A stretch of 64,000 bases of DNA from Candidatus Omnitrophota bacterium (GTDB taxonomy: Bacteria; Omnitrophota; Gorgyraeia; 2-01-FULL-45-10). Position 1 is the first letter of the stretch; the number at the start of each line of letters is the position of its first letter. The stretch lies in NCBI GenBank assembly GCA_041650805.1, contig JBAZKM010000003.1:156439-220438 (forward strand), given 5' to 3'. This document shows, one piece after another, positions 2,566-62,252 of the stretch. A program made the position numbers and the translations under genes. The notes under the pieces were generated by a model, which was not told the origin of the DNA, ran no database searches, and was given only the letters and a program-made list of their open reading frames with translations.

Positions 2566-3876
2566 CTATACGTTTCTTCTCACAAGCTCCAGCGCCGCCT
2601 GCGATGCCTGGAACTTTATCTCTTCGCGCGTTCCCTTGAATCTGAATTCTTTAACGAGAGCTTTCAGCTTTCTGCTTTCAGCTTTCAGCTTTTTACAATC
2701 GTCCATAGCCAAGGCGATATAAACTAAGCCGATGGGTTTCGACTTTGTACCGCCCGTAGGGCCGGCGATGCCCGTGAGAGATAATCCTATATCGGTGCCT
2801 GCGAGCCGCCTCACGCCTTCTGCCATTTCGAGCGCGACCTCGCGCGAAACGGCCCCATATTTCTTGAGGGTAAAGGGAGAGACACCTAGCATATTCACCT
2901 TGGACTCATTCGAATAAGCGATAATACCCATCATGAAATAACCGGAGCTCCCGCTTACGTTAGTAATACGGTGTGAAACGAACCCGCCCGTACAGGATTC
3001 GGCCGTTGCGATCGTCAGCTTCTTACGCTTCAAGGCATTTGCTACGGCGCCTTCGAGCGTATCTTCGTCATATCCGAATATATTACCCCTTAGCCGCGAA
3101 TGGATCTTACCCTCTATCCTTCCTATCACCCGCGCCGCTTCTCTGTCACTATCGGCCTTAGCCATTATCTTCAGGTCGACCTCGCCGAGCTTGGCGTATA
3201 TCCCGACTGTCGTAGGCGGCTTGAGGGAGAGGAGGTCCTTCGCCTTCGCATTGACCTGCGACTCCGCGAGTCCCGTGAGCTTGATCGTACGTGACCTCAG
3301 GGTATAGGGTATAGGGTTTAGGGCATAGTGTTTGAGCAGATAAGGGAGGATTTCGTGTTCCACCATCGGTTCAATTTCGCGCGGCGGCCCCGGGAGCGCG
3401 ATGATCACCTTACCGCGTACTTCCACGATCAATCCAGGCGCGGTGCCGACGCGATTCCGTATACGTTTTGCGCCTTCCGGGATATATGCCTGGCGGATGC
3501 TATCTCGAGGGGCCTTTATCCTGCGTAGTTTGAAGTAGCCGTTCAGGTCTTTCAGGACCGCCCGGTCCAGGATGAGTTCTCTTCCGGTAAGTTTTGCGAT
3601 CGTCTCTATCGTTATGTCATCTACGGTGGGGCCCAGCCCGCCCGAAGTTATTACGACGTCGGACCGGCCGAGCGCCTTCCGGATCGCCTCGGTGAGCCGT
3701 CCCGGATTGTCGCCTACGGTCGTGTGGTGAAATACGTCGATCCCGGCCTCTGCCAGTTTTTGTGAGAGAAAAGCGGCGTTTGTGTTGACGACGTGACCGA
3801 GCAGGAGCTCGGTGCCTATCGCTACGATCTCGGCGGTCATGGGGGTATTATAGCAGGGGCGAGTGACAGCGGTCAA
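2566..3876 (-). CDS. cinA: Competence/damage-inducible protein CinA (N-terminal MoCF-binding domain plus C-terminal CinA/PncC domain).
   Basis: N-terminal AEIVAIGTELLLG...VVITSGGLGPTVDDIT and C-terminal LTIATAESCTGGFVSHRITNVSGSS. Contains two heptamer-repeat-encoded in-frame segments (KLKAESRKLKAL at 2640-2690; NPIPYTL at 3300-3332). Confidence 0.85.
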   Translation of the reverse strand: MTAVTRPCYNTPMTAEIVAIGTELLLGHVVNTNAAFLSQKLAEAGIDVFHHTTVGDNPGRLTEAIRKALGRSDVVITSGGLGPTVDDITIETIAKLTGRELILDRAVLKDLNGYFKLRRIKAPRDSIRQAYIPEGAKRIRNRVGTAPGLIVEVRGKVIIALPGPPREIEPMVEHEILPYLLKHYALNPIPYTLRSRTIKLTGLAESQVNAKAKDLLSLKPPTTVGIYAKLGEVDLKIMAKADSDREAARVIGRIEGKIHSRLRGNIFGYDEDTLEGAVANALKRKKLTIATAESCTGGFVSHRITNVSGSSGYFMMGIIAYSNESKVNMLGVSPFTLKKYGAVSREVALEMAEGVRRLAGTDIGLSLTGIAGPTGGTKSKPIGLVYIALAMDDCKKLKAESRKLKALVKEFRFKGTREEIKFQASQAALELVRRNV

Positions 3877-3880
3877 GAGG

Positions 3881-3922
3881 TTAACGTTCAGCTTTCAGCC
3901 GTCAGCTATCAGCTTTCAGCAA
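3881..3922. repeat. AGCTNTC heptamer array (cinA upstream/divergent region).
   Basis: cagctttcagccgtcagctatcagctttcagc. Confidence 0.8.
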
Positions 3923-3987: not shown

Positions 3988-4032
3988 GCGACTTAGCTAT
4001 CAGCTTTCAGCTGTCAGCTATCAGCAAAAGAA
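3988..4032. repeat. AGCTNTC heptamer array, forward orientation, on the left flank of the four-helix-bundle gene.
   Basis: tagctatcagctttcagctgtcagctatcagc. Confidence 0.8.
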
Positions 4033-4036
4033 GAAT

Positions 4037-4402
4037 ATGAAAGAGCAGAGATTTAGAAAGCTAGAAGTTTGGATCAAAGCAATGGATTTTGTTGAGATGA
4101 TTTATAAGATCACAAACAATTTTCCGCTAAGGGAGACGTATGGTCTTACAAGCCAATTGAGGCGAGCAACGCTATCTATAGCTCTGAATATTGCCGAAGG
4201 AAGCGGCTCTTCTTCCGATAGAGAATTTAGTAGATTCTTGAATATATCTTTGAGGTCATCTTATGAAGTTATGTGCGGCATCGAAGTGGTAAGGCGACTT
4301 AAGTATTGCGATGACAATGCAATAAGCATTTTATCGGACAGATGTGATGAGATATCGGCAATGTTGACCGGTTTAAAGAGAAAGCTGAAAGCTGACGGCT
4401 GA
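4037..4402 (+). CDS. Four-helix-bundle protein of the 23S rRNA intervening-sequence protein family (the family that includes DGR accessory protein Avd).
   Basis: 121 aa with the family signature ...ATLSIALNIAEGSGSSS...FLNISLRSSYEV. The C-terminus KRKLKADG is encoded by the heptamer repeat. Confidence 0.7.
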   Translation: MKEQRFRKLEVWIKAMDFVEMIYKITNNFPLRETYGLTSQLRRATLSIALNIAEGSGSSSDREFSRFLNISLRSSYEVMCGIEVVRRLKYCDDNAISILSDRCDEISAMLTGLKRKLKADG

Positions 4403-4420
4403 TAGCTGAAAGCTGAGGCC
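4383..4420. repeat. AGCTNTC heptamer array in reverse-complement orientation (right flank of the four-helix-bundle gene), forming an inverted pair with 3988-4032.
   Basis: agctgaaagctgacggctgatagctgaaagctgag. Confidence 0.8.
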
Positions 4421-6069: not shown

Positions 6070-8658
6070 ATGAAGACCGACGATATACGAAGCTTATTTC
6101 TGGAGTTTTTCCGCGCCAAGGGGCACGAGATAGTGCCGAGTGATTTGCTCGTCCCGAAAGATGACCCGACGCTCCTCTTTACCGGCGCGGGGATGAACCA
6201 GTTCAAGGAGAAGTTCCTGGGCCGGAACGTCACGTACAGGCGCGCGGCATCGAGCCAGAAATGCCTGAGGACCGGCGACCTTGAGAACGTCGGAAAGACG
6301 TCGGGCCACCACACGTTCTTTGAGATGCTCGGCAACTTTTCGTTCGGGGACTATTTCAAGAAAGAGGCGATCTCCTGGGCGTGGGAGTTCATGACTGAGG
6401 AGCTGAAGATACCGGAAGGCCGGCTCCGGGCGTCGGTATATAAAGACGACGCCGAGGCATACGCCATCTGGAGGGACGTCATAAAGATGCCGGAGCGGAA
6501 GATAATAAAGTTCGGCGAAAAGGAGAACTTCTGGCCTTCCGAGGCGCCGACGAAAGGGCCCAACGGGCCGTGCGGGCCGTGTTCCGAGATATTCTACGAC
6601 TACGGCGATGACGTGGGGTGCAAAAAGCCGGGCTGTACGCCTGCGTGCGACTGCGGGAGGTTCATAGAAGTATGGAACCTCGTATTTACCCAGTTCGACA
6701 GGCGACCGGATGGAAAGCTTGAACCGCTCCCGAACAAGAATATCGATACCGGCATGGGGTTGGAGCGCCTGGCGTCGGTGATGCAGGGAGTGAAGACGAA
6801 CTTTGAGATAGACATCTTTGTGCCGATCGTTAAAGAGATAATCAAGGGTATAGGGTTTAGGGTATCGGGTATAGAAAAAGCTAGACCCGAATCCCCATAC
6901 CCCATACCCTATACCCTATACCCTAAGTTGAACGCCATCGCCGATCACATACGTGCGGTGGCATTCATGATCGCAGACGGCGTGATGCCGTCCAATGAAG
7001 AGCGCGGTTATGTGGCGCGCAAGCTCATCAGGCGGTCGCTTAACCACGCGATGGACCTGGAGATAAAAGTGCCTTTCCTTTACAAGCTCGTGAGCACCGT
7101 TTGCGAGGTGATGAAGATGCAGTACCCGGAGCTTTTGGAGAGAAGGGATGACATAGCTCAGGTCGTGAAGCGCGAGGAGGAGAACTTCCTCGTTGTGCTT
7201 GATACGCAGATACCTAAGGTGGAAGAAGCGTTTGAGAAATTTAAAGGTCATCAGGAATTGGCGGAGACGGCGTTCAATTTTTATGATACATACGGAATGC
7301 CGTATGACATGCTTGAGGAGATCGCCGAAAAATTTAAGTTAAAAATAGACAGGGCCGTCTTTGATAAACTTTTGGACAGGCAACGGACGCTTTCTCGCTC
7401 TAAGAGCAAGATAAAGGGCGAGATATTCTCCGAGACCTTCGCGAAGAAGGTGGAGTCGCTCGGTCTCAGGACAGAGTTTCTCGGTTATGAGAAGGCGAAG
7501 CTTGATGCGAAGGTCGCGGCGGTCCTCGAGGGCGGGGAAGTGATACTCGAGAGGACACCGTTCTACGGAGAATCGGGCGGACAGGCGGGTGACTGGGGCA
7601 CGATCGAGACGCCGTCCGGAAAGATGGAAGTGAAAGACGCGAAGAAGATAGGCGATACGATCGTCCATATAGGCATTATGGTCAAAGGAAGGATCGTCAA
7701 GGGCGAGACGGCCAGGGTCGCCATAGATGAAGAGGTGCGCCGCAGGGTGATGCGTAACCATACGGCGACCCATCTACTGCAGGCGGCCCTCCGCAGGGTG
7801 CTCGGTGAACATGTCCACCAGACGGGTTCCCTGGTGGATGCCGAACACCTGAGGTTCGATTTCACCCACATGAAGAAGATGGAGCCCCGCGAGATCGCCC
7901 GTGTCGAGGAGATAGTGAATGAGGCGATAAAGAAGGGCGTGGCTGTCGCAAAGGATATAAAAGATATAGATGATGCCAAGCAGAGCGGCGCCATAGCGCT
8001 CTTCGGCGAGAAGTACGGATCGAAGGTCCGCGTGATCTCGGTCGGGGACATATCCAGGGAGTTCTGCGGCGGGACACACGTCGATAACACAAAGGATATA
8101 GAGCTCTTCAGGATCACCGGCGAGAGCTCGATCGCATCCGGGGTCCGGCGTATCGAGGCGGTAACTGCGGACGCGGCCAGGAAATGGGCGGCGGACGAGA
8201 TCGAGGCCAGGGACGCAAAGCTCAAAGACGAGAAGCGCAAGGAAAAGGAGAAGACGGCAAAGGCCTCGCTCCTCAAGTCGGAATTGGAGAAGGTCGACTC
8301 ATATATAGCTAAAGGCATAGATGCGGGCGGCACCAGGGTCATAGCGGAGATAGTCCCGGGCGGCGTTATGGATATACTGCGCGCGCTGAGCGACGCCATA
8401 AAGTCGAAGGAGAGGTCCGCTGTCATAGTCCTGGCGTCTAAAGATAACGATAAAGTGTCGTTCGTGGTCTCGCTCACAAAGGACATCTTAGGCAGGAAGA
8501 CCCTTACGGCCAATGATATAGCGAAAGATATGGCGAAGTACTTAAGCGGCTCCGGCGGCGGAAGGCCGGATTTCGCTCAGGGCGGCGGAAAAGATCCGTC
8601 GAAACTTGACGAGGCGTTACGGAAAACGTTTGAACTGGTCAAAGAGAGGCTAAGATGA
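6070..8658 (+). CDS. alaS: Alanine--tRNA ligase.
   Basis: 862 aa with class II AlaRS core motifs, editing-domain HxxxH (HTATHLL), and C-terminal DHHA1-like GGGRPDFAQGGG. Carries a palindromic in-frame repeat insertion at 6841-6927. Confidence 0.95.
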   Translation: MKTDDIRSLFLEFFRAKGHEIVPSDLLVPKDDPTLLFTGAGMNQFKEKFLGRNVTYRRAASSQKCLRTGDLENVGKTSGHHTFFEMLGNFSFGDYFKKEAISWAWEFMTEELKIPEGRLRASVYKDDAEAYAIWRDVIKMPERKIIKFGEKENFWPSEAPTKGPNGPCGPCSEIFYDYGDDVGCKKPGCTPACDCGRFIEVWNLVFTQFDRRPDGKLEPLPNKNIDTGMGLERLASVMQGVKTNFEIDIFVPIVKEIIKGIGFRVSGIEKARPESPYPIPYTLYPKLNAIADHIRAVAFMIADGVMPSNEERGYVARKLIRRSLNHAMDLEIKVPFLYKLVSTVCEVMKMQYPELLERRDDIAQVVKREEENFLVVLDTQIPKVEEAFEKFKGHQELAETAFNFYDTYGMPYDMLEEIAEKFKLKIDRAVFDKLLDRQRTLSRSKSKIKGEIFSETFAKKVESLGLRTEFLGYEKAKLDAKVAAVLEGGEVILERTPFYGESGGQAGDWGTIETPSGKMEVKDAKKIGDTIVHIGIMVKGRIVKGETARVAIDEEVRRRVMRNHTATHLLQAALRRVLGEHVHQTGSLVDAEHLRFDFTHMKKMEPREIARVEEIVNEAIKKGVAVAKDIKDIDDAKQSGAIALFGEKYGSKVRVISVGDISREFCGGTHVDNTKDIELFRITGESSIASGVRRIEAVTADAARKWAADEIEARDAKLKDEKRKEKEKTAKASLLKSELEKVDSYIAKGIDAGGTRVIAEIVPGGVMDILRALSDAIKSKERSAVIVLASKDNDKVSFVVSLTKDILGRKTLTANDIAKDMAKYLSGSGGGRPDFAQGGGKDPSKLDEALRKTFELVKERLR
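6841..6927. repeat. Palindromic CCCTATA/GGGTATA heptamer-array insertion inside the alaS coding sequence.
   Basis: gggtatagggtttagggtatcgggtatag + 18-nt spacer + ccccataccccataccctataccctataccc; encodes KGIGFRVSGIEKARPESPYPIPYTLYP. Confidence 0.85.
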
Positions 8659-10503: not shown

Positions 10504-11157
10504 ATGATAGCTATAATCGACTACGGGATGGGTAACCTGAGGAGCGTCCAGAAGGCGTTCGAGGTCACGGGCGCCGGGGCGAAGATCACCTCAAGGGCGG
10601 CCGACCTGGCGAAGGCGGAAAAGGTCGTATTCCCGGGCGTCGGCTCTTTTGGAGAGGCGATGGCGGAACTGAGGAGGCGTAAGCTCGTAGACCCGATAAA
10701 GGGTGCCATCGCAGAGGGCAAGCCGTTCCTCGGCCTCTGCCTCGGGCTTCAACTGCTTTTTGAACGGAGCGAGGAAGCGCCCGGCGTTAAGGGGCTGGGA
10801 GTGCTTAGCGGCAGGGTGAAACGTTTTAAGCCCGCAGTCCACAGCCCACGGCCCAATGCTCAAACGTTGAAAGTCCCGCATATGGGCTGGAATAGTATCA
10901 GCTTTCAGCTTTCAGCTTTCAGCTTTCAGCAAAATATCCTGAAAGGCATAGACAGAGGTTCGTACGTATACTTCGTCCATTCATATTACGTCGATCCGGA
11001 GGATAAGAGTGTGACGCTTACGACGACGGATTATGGTATCCGGTTCGTGTCGGGTATTTCGAAGGATAATCTATTCGGTCTTCAATTCCACCCGGAGAAG
11101 AGCCAGGATACAGGGTTGAAGATAGTGAAGAATTTTGTGAGGATAAAATGCAGATAA
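10504..11157 (+). CDS. hisH: Imidazole glycerol phosphate synthase, glutaminase subunit.
   Basis: GATase-1 with catalytic LGLCLGLQ and PHMGWN...FVHSY. Has an in-frame AGCTTTC heptamer array at 10896-10932. Confidence 0.93.
   Translation: MIAIIDYGMGNLRSVQKAFEVTGAGAKITSRAADLAKAEKVVFPGVGSFGEAMAELRRRKLVDPIKGAIAEGKPFLGLCLGLQLLFERSEEAPGVKGLGVLSGRVKRFKPAVHSPRPNAQTLKVPHMGWNSISFQLSAFSFQQNILKGIDRGSYVYFVHSYYVDPEDKSVTLTTTDYGIRFVSGISKDNLFGLQFHPEKSQDTGLKIVKNFVRIKCR
10896..10932. repeat. AGCTTTC x5 heptamer array inside the hisH coding sequence.
   Basis: tcagctttcagctttcagctttcagctttcagc, encoding SFQLSAFSFQQ between the GWN and FVHSY motifs. Confidence 0.85.
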
Positions 11158-11910: not shown

Positions 11911-12687
11911 ATGCTTACAAAGCGTATAATACCGTGTCTCGATGTAAAGAACGGCAGGGTCGTCAAGGGCGTGAACTTCGTCAACCTTAAGGACGCGGGA
12001 GACGCCGTCGAGAACGCGCGTTTTTACGATCGCGAAAAGGCGGACGAGCTTGTATTCCTCGATATAACGGCCAGCCACGAAAGGCGTAAGACCGTTATCG
12101 ACCTGGTGAAGAAGGTGGCGGACAGCGTATTCCTGCCTTTCACCGTAGGGGGCGGCATAGGGACGATCGACGATATCAGGAGCCTCCTTAACGCAGGTTG
12201 CGATAAGGTCTCGGTCAATACCGCGGCGGTGAAGCGGCCTGCGTTCGTGAGGGAGGCATCGCGGAGGTTCGGCAGCCAGTGTATCGTCGTGGCGATCGAC
12301 GCAAAGCGGTCCACAGTCCATGGTCCGCGGTCCACAGGAAAATGGGAAGTGTATATTAACGGGGGACGGACACCGACCGGGATAGATGCGGTAAAGTGGG
12401 CAAAGAGGGCCGAGAAGCTGGGCGCAGGCGAGATCCTCCTTACGAGCATGGACTACGACGGCACTAAAGCGGGTTATGATATCGAGCTTACCGGTCGCAT
12501 AAGCGAAGAGGTCGGCCTCCCGGTCATAGCTTCGGGAGGGGCCGGAACGCTTGAAGATCTGTACGATGCGCTTTCGAAAGGGAAGGCCGATGCGGTGCTG
12601 GCCGCGTCTATATTCCACTTCCGGGAATATTCTATCCCGGAGGCAAAGAGATATCTTAAGGGAAAGGGTGTAAGGGTAAGGTTATGA
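11911..12687 (+). CDS. hisF: Imidazole glycerol phosphate synthase, cyclase subunit.
   Basis: [16 protein letters not shown]..., [19 protein letters not shown]. Contains a GTCCACG repeat segment (STVHGPRST) at 12308-12338. Confidence 0.93.

Positions 12688-19965: not shown

Positions 19966-19979
<14 letters not shown>
19170..19979 (+). CDS. trpA: Tryptophan synthase alpha chain.
   Basis: AFIAYITAGDPDL, VELGIPFSDPIADGPTIQ, YYVSLTGVTG. Confidence 0.93.
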
Positions 19980-20906
<927 letters not shown>

Positions 20907-58427: not shown

Positions 58428-58434
58428 CTAAATA

Positions 58435-58510
58435 GTCACCAAGTCACCAGGTCACAAAGTCACCAGTGAAAGCTTTTACGGGTGACGTGGTGACCTGGTG
58501 TCCTGGTGAC
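58435..58510. repeat. ~75-bp imperfect palindromic intergenic element built from GTCACCA heptamers (copy 1).
   Basis: gtcaccaagtcaccaggtcacaaagtcaccagtgaaagcttttacgggtgacgtggtgacctggtgtcctggtgac. It shares the 31-nt core caaagtcaccagtgaaagcttttacgggtgac with 60639-60708. Confidence 0.85.
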
Positions 58511-58527
58511 CAAATAAGCTATATACT

Positions 58528-60638: not shown

Positions 60639-60708
60639 TGTCACAAAGTCACCAGTGAAAGCTTTTACGGGTGACCTGGTGACGGGTGACCTGGTGACCG
60701 AGAGGCTA
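60639..60708. repeat. GTCACCA-heptamer palindromic intergenic element (copy 2).
   Basis: tgtcacaaagtcaccagtgaaagcttttacgggtgacctggtgacgggtgacctggtgac. Confidence 0.85.
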
Positions 60709-60709
60709 T

Positions 60710-61567
60710 ATGATTCGATTTAATAAGGTCGCGATAATCGGCGTAGGATTGATGGGCGGCTCGATCGGGCTGGCAGTGAAGAAGCGAAGAGTGGCCGGAG
60801 AGGTCATCGGCGTCTTCAGGCATGCCTCCACTTTGAGGAGGGCCCTGAAGAGAAGGGCCGTAGACCGCGGGACCCTGAGCATAGAGGAGGGCGTAAAGGA
60901 CGCCGACCTAATTATAATAGCAACGCCCGTATATTCCATACCGCCGCTTGCGGCAAAAGTGATGCGTTATGCGAAGAAGGGGGCCATGATCACCGATGCA
61001 GGCAGCACGAAGAAGTGGCTGGTGGGAGAAGTCGAGAGGAAACTCGGTAGTTCCCGCCGGGTATTTTTCGTAGGGTCCCATCCTATGGCCGGGTCGGAAC
61101 ACGCAGGGGTTGAGTTCGCCAGGGACAACCTCCTGGCCGATGCCCCGTGCATAGTGACGAGGACCCCGAAGACCGACAGGCGCGCCCTCGGGGCCGTCAT
61201 CAACTTCTGGTCGGCGCTGGGCGCAAGGGTCGCCATTATGGACCCTTCCGCACACGACAGGAACATATCGTTCGCAAGCCATCTGCCGCACCTGGTCGCT
61301 TTCGGCGTCATAGGGGCCGTCCCGGAGAAGTATTTCCTCTATTCGGCGGAGGGCTTTAAAGACACTACGAGAGTGGCATCGAGCGACCCCAGGATGTGGA
61401 CGGATATCTTCCTGACCAACAGAAAAGATGTCCTGAGGTCGGCCCGCATGTTCAAGGGCTACCTCGGCGAGATAGTACGGGTGGTGAAGAACGGAGATTC
61501 CAAGAAGCTCTTCCGCCTGCTTAAGAGCGCAAAGATGAAGCGCGACAAATTCTTTTATGGGAAATAA
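60710..61567 (+). CDS. tyrA: Prephenate dehydrogenase.
   Basis: VAIIGVGLMGGSIGLAV NAD(P)-binding, HPMAGSE. Confidence 0.88.
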   Translation: MIRFNKVAIIGVGLMGGSIGLAVKKRRVAGEVIGVFRHASTLRRALKRRAVDRGTLSIEEGVKDADLIIIATPVYSIPPLAAKVMRYAKKGAMITDAGSTKKWLVGEVERKLGSSRRVFFVGSHPMAGSEHAGVEFARDNLLADAPCIVTRTPKTDRRALGAVINFWSALGARVAIMDPSAHDRNISFASHLPHLVAFGVIGAVPEKYFLYSAEGFKDTTRVASSDPRMWTDIFLTNRKDVLRSARMFKGYLGEIVRVVKNGDSKKLFRLLKSAKMKRDKFFYGK

Positions 61568-62252
61568 GAGCCCGCGGACGCTCGTGATAGCAATAGACGG
61601 GCCTGCGGGGAGCGGAAAGAGCACCGTCTCCAAGCTTATAGCTAAAAAGCTCGGCATACTGTATGTAGACACAGGGGCCATGTACAGGGCGCTTACCCTT
61701 AAGGCGATGCGGGAACGTATAGACCTCAAAGATGAAGATGCCCTGGTATCATTGGCCCGTTCCACCGGCATAGACCTTGGCGAAGGGGCCGGGCGCCTCA
61801 GGGTGCTGCTTGACGGAGAAGACGTGGCGGGCCTCATACGCACGCCGGAACTGACCGCAAATATAAAGTACATAGCGCGGGTGCCGGGGGTGAGGCACGA
61901 GATGGTGAGACTCCAGCGCGCCATAGGCAAACGGCAGGGCGCCGTCCTGGAGGGAAGGGATATAGGCACGGTCGTATTCCCGGACGCCGACCATAAATTC
62001 TATCTTGACGCAAGCGTCAAAGAGAGGGCCAGGCGCAGGCACAGGGAGTTGCTTGAGTCCGGCGAAAAGGTCAGCGTTGAGGAGATAGAGAAAGATATAG
62101 TCGTAAGGGACGAATCGGACATAAAGAGGGAGGTCGGCGCGCTCAAAAAGGCCGACGACGCCGTTCTCATCGATACGACGGGCCTCACGATAAATGAGGT
62201 AGTAGAGAAGATATTAAGTCATATACCCGATACCCTATACCCTATACCCTGA
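61557..62252 (+). CDS. cmk: Cytidylate kinase.
   Basis: IAIDGPAGSGKSTVSK, VDTGAMYRA. The C-terminal residues DTLYPIP are encoded by the CCCTATA repeat (62225-62250). Confidence 0.92.
   Translation: MGNKSPRTLVIAIDGPAGSGKSTVSKLIAKKLGILYVDTGAMYRALTLKAMRERIDLKDEDALVSLARSTGIDLGEGAGRLRVLLDGEDVAGLIRTPELTANIKYIARVPGVRHEMVRLQRAIGKRQGAVLEGRDIGTVVFPDADHKFYLDASVKERARRRHRELLESGEKVSVEEIEKDIVVRDESDIKREVGALKKADDAVLIDTTGLTINEVVEKILSHIPDTLYPIP

Follow-up and report, generated by a model that had tools for sequence, protein, structure and literature searches.

A translated palindrome of heptanucleotide arrays in the alanyl-tRNA synthetase of an Omnitrophota bacterium, probably a passenger copy of a dispersed repeat element

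We analyzed a 64,000-nt stretch of the genome of a Candidatus Omnitrophota bacterium (assembly GCA_041650805.1, contig JBAZKM010000003.1, positions 156,439 to 220,438 of the forward strand; hereafter the window, numbered from its first base), in which alaS, the gene for alanyl-tRNA synthetase (AlaRS, 862 aa; 6070–8658, + strand), carries in frame a palindrome made of two inverted arrays of 7-nt units. The insert is genuine and translated, is not conserved and occupies a coil between domains that tolerates it; it belongs to the broad class of heptanucleotide tandem arrays. We consider it probable that the palindrome is not AlaRS sequence proper but a copy of a dispersed heptanucleotide-array element that is translated and tolerated there as a passenger. 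This Omnitrophota lineage holds many such arrays of four to five units (28–35 nt), with period 7 dominant and some of period 8, and each genome has only a few unit families. Some arrays stand alone and others form inverted pairs that fold into hairpins, in spacers as well as in frame within proteins.

Tandem Repeats Finder (TRF) resolves the element into a left arm, (AGGGTAT)x4.3 at 6845–6874, and a right arm, (CCCTATA)x4.7 at 6893–6925, both listed on the + strand, with an 18-nt spacer between them (6875–6892, AAAAAGCTAGACCCGAAT) that forms the loop region of the hairpin and whose 3′ part consists of two decayed units. The left arm, with units GGGTATA, GGGTTTA, GGGTATC, GGGTATA and a final G, is translated as KGIGFRVSGIE and contains four G-tracts (G3N4 three times, then G3); a G-quadruplex (G4)-type motif lies at 6846–6869, and canonical motifs of four G3N4 units are present on both strands. 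The right arm is in its stop-free orientation and is translated as SPYPIPYTLYPK. Depending on where its limits are drawn, the element spans 81–87 nt (6845–6925 being the array limits), and position 6841 is in frame with the open reading frame (ORF) of alaS, giving the element peptide IKGIGFRVSGIEKARPESPYPIPYTLYPK. The best inverted arms, 6845–6872 and 6897–6924, are 28 nt each, 93% complementary and separated by 24 nt. As RNA, the element has a predicted minimum free energy of -42.7 kcal/mol versus -21.8 +/- 3.2 kcal/mol in 200 dinucleotide shuffles (z -6.5), none of which (0/200) reaches its stability, and its DNA folding energy is -23.9 kcal/mol (z -7.5). The heptamer motif is enriched in the window, with 14 matches versus 0.75 expected and, in a second count, 13 versus 0.07. 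Rfam returned only sub-threshold matches for the element, to eukaryotic miRNA hairpins that are generic stem-loops, and no family at the gathering score for the whole window (1–64000), in which no tRNA genes were found either. Nearly all genes of the window lie on the + strand.

The host gene was assigned from its ORF, its Pfam domains (PF01411, PF07973 and PF02272) and a match to AlaRS in the PDB (E 7e-129); its product is 100% identical to the alanine--tRNA ligase of a Candidatus Omnitrophota metagenome-assembled genome (MAG) at NCBI, and the next relatives are ~71% identical. The element corresponds to aa 259–286, which follow the catalytic core and precede the helical tRNA-recognition domain. 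Alignment with solved structures (9jc7, 3hxu and 1riq) opens a gap exactly at the insert, with ~11–12 residues there versus 28 here, an excess of ~16–17 residues over solved bacterial AlaRS structures. In outgroup phyla (Planctomycetota and others), the loop has a fixed length and conserved residues at this site. An AlphaFold2 model shows the insert as a coil between helices 251–260 and 281–302, with a predicted local distance difference test score (pLDDT) below 50 at residues 266–275, and the peptide is probably a neutral, disordered linker. A preliminary description, made from the bare sequence, had placed an in-frame hairpin of the CCCTATA heptamer family at 6841–6927, between the aminoacylation core and the tRNA-recognition region of AlaRS. 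Re-reading the window bears out its sequence, coordinates and translation, and the ORF stays open through the region; TRF and the motif counts agree on the heptamer family, the PDB alignments and the AlphaFold model agree on the location, the folding energies given above agree with a stable mRNA hairpin, and alignment confirms that the residues are extra and non-conserved relative to solved structures, outgroups and the closest relative.

The reading frame through the left arm depends on a single base. A perfect GGGTATA array has a TAG in every frame, and the variant base of unit 3 (GGGTATC), the C at 6866 in codon TCG (6865–6867, + strand), removes the in-frame TAG; reverting this C to A restores a stop (IKGIGFRV*GIE). 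The closest relative, a genome we refer to by its locus number L081 (GCA_041643025.1; AlaRS ~72% identical), avoids the TAG by a different change, GGGTACA, read as codon CAG. Similarly, an array in cinA (2659–2692) would contain an in-frame TGA but for one T-to-A change. Among interior arrays of unit families with stop asymmetry, eight are in the stop-free orientation and three are not. Selection has acted here only as a filter, passing arrays that have a length divisible by three, a stop-free orientation or a single substitution that removes a stop.

Across the lineage, the site of the insert is hypervariable: in an alignment of 120 Omnitrophota AlaRS, this loop is the only segment that varies in both length and sequence in essentially every protein. 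A 7-residue periodicity is found in 21 of 110 loops versus 1.85 in shuffles (for example TRDEGRETRDEGR, RFQSGIVRFQSGIG and QRPQTVDQRPQTKDQ), which, at the peptide level, is the signature expected of a translated 7-nt repeat. At the DNA level, 11 of 31 loci carry period-7 arrays in the loop and two carry period-8 arrays. The units differ from locus to locus: (GGGTCCA)4 in L002, AGCTKTC arrays in L001 and L004, AAAGCTC in L013, AGTCACA in L018 and L023, and octamers in L005 and L025, and L008 has a (TCGTCCA)4-loop-(CGAAGGA)n hairpin (-34.6 kcal/mol) that is built like the element in the window. Deeper-branching Omnitrophota (L022, L024, L034 and L040) have short, array-free loops. Neighbor-joining of the 120 AlaRS gave a star-like tree in which the query is not paired with its best hit; the tree was not used for gains or losses, and pairwise identities were used in its place. 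By this measure, AlaRS pairs that are 90–94% identical elsewhere carry unrelated loop arrays, and one loop type recurs in lineages only 66–79% identical. Further inserts were observed in AlaRS. L081 has an (AAAGCTC)x5.6 array (12104–12142) in the C-terminal part of alaS, at a place where the window has none. Other orthologues carry a different kind of repeat-derived insert, either at the loop site (P0046, P0052, P0105 and P0026) or at query positions ~391–397 (P0089 and P0092), with peptides of the type ..EAISxSKIAS..PRNDV/ARS and ..VIASEAKQS..GLAMT; these peptide sequences suggest that a second palindromic element family may use the same tolerant AlaRS sites.

Comparison with L081 shows how the palindrome may have been assembled. 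At the matching codon, L081 has one forward array (AGGGTATAGGGCATAGGGTACAGGGTTTAG), and its alaS lacks 39 nt corresponding to the spacer and inverted arm of the window element. The palindrome is therefore composite, since L081 has the left array without spacer or right arm: in the window, an older forward GGGTATA array, common to both genomes, is followed by a spacer and an inverted array, which makes the hairpin. This argues against a discrete ~87-nt palindromic mobile element, similar to Rickettsia palindromic elements (RPEs) or miniature transposable elements with inverted repeats (MITEs), that was inserted once into alaS as a unit. The palindromic, in-frame and loop-sited architecture would fit such an insertion, as would the duplication of whole hairpins including their loops elsewhere in the window and the presence of a 59-nt array hairpin in one of four close relatives (both described below). 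The spacer, however, has no second copy in the window even with up to 3 mismatches allowed, no terminal signature is visible, orthologue loops contain many other units, and the other three GGGTATA-family copies in the window are single; no target-site duplication of the MITE type is visible at the alaS element, at a 33-nt insertion in cinA or at the 59-nt insertion. Taken together, these data make a single insertion quite unlikely. Transposon footprints with 7-bp target duplications were also considered and dropped, as identical units occur at unrelated loci.

The right arm is found in one assembly only, which raises the question of whether the palindrome, or at least this arm, is an assembly artefact: the sequence comes from a single MAG, repeats and palindromes are prone to misassembly, and no second contig with the sequence was found. 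Against this, the frame is open through both arms with a stop-removing variant at exactly the base where it is needed, the independent assembly of L081 has an array orthologous to the left arm, a similar hairpin is present in alaS of L008, and such arrays are found in dozens of independent assemblies. We find an artefact hardly credible.

The alaS arrays are part of a large set in the window. TRF finds ~30 short period-7/8 arrays of 4–5 units in the 64 kb, and a strict scan finds nine period-7 arrays and none at periods 5, 6 or 8–12, with none in shuffles. The unit families are AGCTNTC, GGGTATA, GGTCCAC/AGCCCAC, GGTCACC(A) and CTCCAAN, and by a crude gene map 23 of 32 period-7/8 arrays lie inside ORFs. 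In a broader comparison, we counted 62 strong period-7 arrays in 530 kb of Omnitrophota loci versus five in 777 kb of outgroup loci, and 54 of the 62 have 4–5 units. Five arrays in the window are of the GGGTATA family. The three outside alaS are located in frame in cinA, a gene on the - strand (array at 3299–3333, + strand; peptide KHYALNPIPYTL), between trpA and a nucleoside triphosphate (NTP)-transferase gene (19985–20011, - strand), and in the last codons (HIPDTLYPIP*) of the gene at 61557–62252 (array at 62222–62250, - strand). The NTP-transferase appears to start upstream of the array at 19985–20011 (region 19966–20030), such that the array is read as an N-terminal extension. The alaS left arm differs from the array at 62222–62250 by one base and the two have the GGGTATC variant unit in common, and the arrays at 3299 and 19985 have a common pattern of unit variants, TATA-TATA-TTTA.

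Arrays of the other families also lie in frame inside genes. The CinA domain contains an in-frame (AGCTTTC)x4.9 array (2659–2692, + strand), which orthologue alignment shows to be a clean 33-nt insertion present only in the window genome. Two in-frame arrays lie in hisH (10829–10930, + strand), one of AGCCCAC type (10829–10855) and one (TCAGCTT)x4.7 (10898–10930), and both sites are array hot spots in other species too. In hisF, a (CGGTCCA)x4.1 array (12307–12335, + strand) replaces the conserved CKxKT+ loop, extending it from 24 to 30 nt in orthologue alignment, and the NTP-transferase gene contains a perfect in-frame (GGTCCAC)x4.4 array (20501–20531, + strand). An uninterrupted ORF of 7094 aa (29171–50455, + strand) holds nine or more heptamer or octamer arrays in frame, located from 35.6 to 49.8 kb and mostly in its last third; an 8447-aa gene lies upstream of the corresponding neighborhood in L081.

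Outside genes, the arrays also form hairpins. An inverted pair of AGCTNTC arrays (1818–1889) folds into a hairpin right behind a stop codon, and an octamer-array hairpin (AGTCACCA / GGTGACCT; 58434–58511) has a second copy at 60641–60699, both likewise right behind stop codons. These two copies have ~35 identical nt (58451–58485 and 60641–60675) that include the loop GTGAAAGCTTTTACG. We rejected the possibility that the intergenic hairpins are intrinsic terminators, as no T-run follows them. Several hairpins have the sequence AAAGCT in their loops, among them the alaS element in its spacer.

These observations bear on a purely local origin, in which nothing is mobile: slippage would amplify a heptamer in place, ~7 nt being a length that polymerase is proposed to favor (Mrazek 2007), and fold-back or template switching would then create the inverted arm. 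Two sources describe heptanucleotide simple sequence repeats as over-represented in many bacteria and propose slippage as their cause (PMC4679880, citing Mrazek 2007; PMC6344855), and many alaS arrays begin at an ancestral AAG-GG codon pair with a common GGGT core and variable 3′ bases, as concerted evolution in place would give. It would be harder to reconcile with this origin that few units occur at many unrelated loci of one genome with shared internal variants, that copy number is tightly 4–5 rather than broad, that hairpins with identical loops are found at two loci, and that PF05635 genes have arrays of a single unit to either side, in most cases inverted (see below). We regard a local origin as unlikely and favor the reading of the alaS palindrome as a passenger copy of a dispersed array element. 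On that reading the propagating unit would be the DNA (or RNA) array, and arrays would be copied between loci, as suggested by the shared variants, the duplicated whole hairpins and clean presence or absence in close relatives. The last of these is seen in four syntenic genomes (L082–L085) that are 92–93% identical over recX..hisI and in which the larger indel blocks found are mostly arrays or hairpins. Their alaS loops contain (GGTCCAC)4, (CAAAGTGY)3.5 or (AGARACA)4.5, which are mutually unrelated; a 59-nt array hairpin in the hisB-hisH spacer is present in L082 only, and one of the four lacks a 95-nt array block that lies between alaS and hisD in the others.

The window also contains a gene with a close physical relation to the arrays. 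A PF05635 gene (4037–4402; Pfam E 9e-35), encoding a four-helix-bundle protein of the 23S rRNA intervening sequence (IVS) and Avd-like type, is flanked by inverted AGCTNTC arrays (whole cassette 3995–4416, + strand), forward at 3995–4025 and reverse at 4380–4416, with an extra array at 3887–3920. The downstream array supplies the stop codon of the gene, and L081 has no such gene in its cinA-recA spacer. Heptamer arrays flank nine of nine independent Omnitrophota PF05635 cassettes, a count that comprises the window and all homologues with DNA available, and the arrays are inverted in eight. Upstream and downstream units are AGCTNTA, inverted, in L001 (6490–6907), GGGTCCA and CTGGACC in L002 (6413–6862), AAACCCT and AGGGTTT in L016 (14543–15012), AGCTNTC and GANAGCT in L086, L087 and L089, which each have a different gene neighborhood, and GGGKCAA and TTGMCCC in L092; in L090, the long arrays to either side share one orientation. 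The array unit family (AGCTNTC, AGCTNTA, GGGTCCA/GGGKCAA or AAACCCT) tracks the PF05635 subfamily. Protein tails coded by arrays differ between subfamilies: of 120 homologues of the window protein, 63 end in the array-coded ..KLKADS / ..KLKAES, versus 0 of 120 homologues of the L002 protein, and GP/DP tails coded by TGGACCC are found in eight homologues of the L002 protein versus none of the window protein. Many PF05635 homologues lie on very short contigs, as expected if flanking repeats break assemblies.

This arrangement extends beyond the phylum. A tblastn search of 72,556 plasmids gave 25 records with a PF05635 homologue, 22 of them cyanobacterial and mostly Nostocales. Among 15 plasmid-borne homologues inspected (L093–L107; Nostoc, Calothrix, Trichormus, Anabaena, Scytonema, Aulosira, Geminocystis, Pseudanabaena and Azospirillum), at least 13 are flanked by inverted heptamer arrays of a single unit, the units being TCAGGAG, TCAGAAT, AGTAGGG, GTGACAG, AGGGTGT, AAAAGGG and, in Azospirillum, GAGGACG; the background in one cassette-bearing plasmid is four period-7 arrays in 50 kb. 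The Calothrix brevissima gene is flanked by AGGGTGT/AGGGTAT, a unit near-identical to the GGGTATA family. Several plasmid cassettes are located within CRISPR-cas operons, between cas6 and cas4 (L097 and L102) or between cas10 and cmr3 (L100). From these data we put forward, tentatively and as a possibility rather than an expectation, that heptamer arrays are the cis-elements of a cross-phylum element in which a PF05635 gene sits in inverted arrays, each subfamily recognizes its own unit, and orphan arrays are gene-less derivatives that spread and write linker peptides into essential enzymes. Assigning the arrays to PF05635 cassettes is the most speculative step; on this view orphan hairpins, including the one in alaS, would be gene-less derivatives of the cassettes in the way that REPINs, hairpins of two inverted repetitive extragenic palindromic (REP) sequences, relate to REP-associated tyrosine transposases (RAYTs). 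By analogy with rRNA IVSs, orphan hairpins may also be processed as RNA stems. We found no paper linking PF05635 or S23p proteins with heptamers, and no report on heptamer repeats in Omnitrophota.

Comparison with known systems helps to place the element. RPEs are palindromic repeats found as in-frame insertions in housekeeping genes unrelated to one another, where they are translated at positions compatible with the protein fold (PMC10969869), and the alaS element resembles them in being a stable palindromic hairpin that is in frame, translated and at a site the fold tolerates. RPEs differ in being ~100–150 bp long, with a family-specific consensus and conserved peptides, and in occurring only in Rickettsia, whereas the arms of the alaS element are tandem heptamers; unlike in RPEs, only the arms recur and not the whole, and relatives hold unrelated units at the same site. 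By analogy, then, the element may be likened to an RPE in function, as a palindrome tolerated in a housekeeping enzyme, and it is not a member of the RPE family, whose defining whole-element copies have no counterpart in the window. The direct RPE analogy drawn in the preliminary description is thus fair as to function, and the picture of a discrete element in an otherwise fixed gene gives way to a hypervariable loop in 120 orthologues, a composite palindrome and single arrays elsewhere.

The arrays belong with the short tandemly repeated repetitive (STRR) sequences of Nostocales, the GGGNATC repeats, the TAACTGA repeats of Beggiatoaceae and the long simple sequence repeats (LSSRs; Mrazek 2007), all of which likewise have units of 7 nt in short arrays and, in each genome, many scattered copies of a favored unit. 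Occasional copies of heptanucleotide repeats are translated or overlap stop codons (PMC4679880), and the function of these repeats is unknown (PMC6344855). Published accounts place STRR- and LSSR-type repeats chiefly between genes and, where they do fall in an ORF, mostly at the termini of proteins or in hypothetical ones; unlike them, the window arrays are mostly in ORFs, including conserved enzymes, at recurrent hot-spot loops, and several unit families coexist with common inverted pairs. Like REPINs, the alaS element has two inverted short repeats, a short spacer and a hairpin, and the arrays have many orphan copies; like REP/RAYT systems, there is a candidate partner gene, here PF05635, flanked by inverted repeats with family-specific pairing. 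REPs, however, are extragenic and not tandem heptamers, and RAYTs are Y1 transposases with known cleavage chemistry, whereas PF05635 is a small four-helix bundle. No RAYT or other transposase was found among the 20 of ~40 window proteins that were scanned. In 23S rRNA IVSs, as in the cassettes, an ORF is enclosed by inverted repeats that can pair as a stem. The protein family of the cassettes, PF05635, is also that of IVSs with an S23p ORF and of Avd in diversity-generating retroelements, and PF05635 resembles Avd (PMC10053308). Unlike rRNA IVSs and Avd, the cassettes lie between protein-coding genes with no reverse transcriptase nearby, and their inverted repeats are heptamer arrays. The alaS element in turn differs from a PF05635 cassette in having no ORF between its arms, and would be at most a gene-less derivative.

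Several observations weigh against the passenger reading. Neither the complete alaS element nor its spacer has another copy in the window, metagenome scans for its left flank and for a paired GGGTATA...CCCTATA architecture were both empty, and the alaS hairpin itself is therefore at most putatively mobile. The shared-variant argument rests on few positions. No PF05635 gene with GGGTATA flanks is present in the visible 64 kb of the window genome, and we know of no catalytic activity of PF05635 proteins, which therefore cannot alone explain insertion. The AlphaFold2 model is only moderate (mean pLDDT 78, with further low-confidence stretches elsewhere) and therefore serves as supporting evidence only. 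Finally, alaS is a recombination mosaic in L082–L085: identity is 95–100% just upstream of the variable loop and drops to 43–80% for 100–800 nt from the loop downstream. As the array swaps coincide with these recombination tracts of 100–800 nt, part of the turnover is import and not new insertion. This mosaic weakens the idea that the loop swaps in close relatives come solely from arrays being written rapidly de novo; homologous recombination probably shuffles arrays between lineages.

Conservation within the left array also counts against a neutral passenger. Between the window and L081, at 72% amino acid identity, the GGG tracts are invariant and the loop bases variable, which could reflect selection on the array, for example as a G-quadruplex. 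The element could then be retained for a function in alaS, with an mRNA hairpin or G-quadruplex slowing ribosomes between domains, an RNase III site tuning AlaRS level, a site for an array-binding protein or a slippage-driven contingency switch. The very stable stem and the G3N4 motifs on both strands would suit such a role, as would the occurrence of arrays in the loop of a large share of species and the preference for four units in G4-forming heptamers elsewhere, as seen in the GGGNATC repeats of Xanthomonas and Nostoc (PMC4692102). Orthologues, however, have single arrays, hairpins, non-G-rich units, octamers or nothing at the site, with no conserved structure; the hisH and hisF loops behave likewise, which speaks for tolerance and not for a role peculiar to alaS, and frameshifting switches would come at a high cost if many housekeeping genes had them. 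A local function is in our view very unlikely. The G-quadruplex as a general explanation of the arrays was rejected, most unit families not being G-rich, and is still possible for the GGGTATA family.

Heptamer arrays have long been noticed as an unexplained "prime-number periodicity" of prokaryotic genomes. Here, non-triplet 7-nt repeats are written into the conserved proteins AlaRS, HisH, HisF and CinA and kept in frame, with single-base edits removing stops, which means that the arrays, unusually, keep supplying essential proteins with new linker peptides and with differences in length. A single AlaRS loop acts as a clade-wide sink for repeat elements; it should be useful for annotation, alignment and phylogeny of Omnitrophota, and it is nature's own pointer to a place in AlaRS where insertions are tolerated. 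If true, the pairing of PF05635 with arrays would give STRR-type repeats their first protein partner and a testable mechanism, and would give a role to many stand-alone PF05635 genes. The subfamily-specific flanking of PF05635 genes by arrays in Omnitrophota, cyanobacteria and Azospirillum turns this into a concrete, testable hypothesis.

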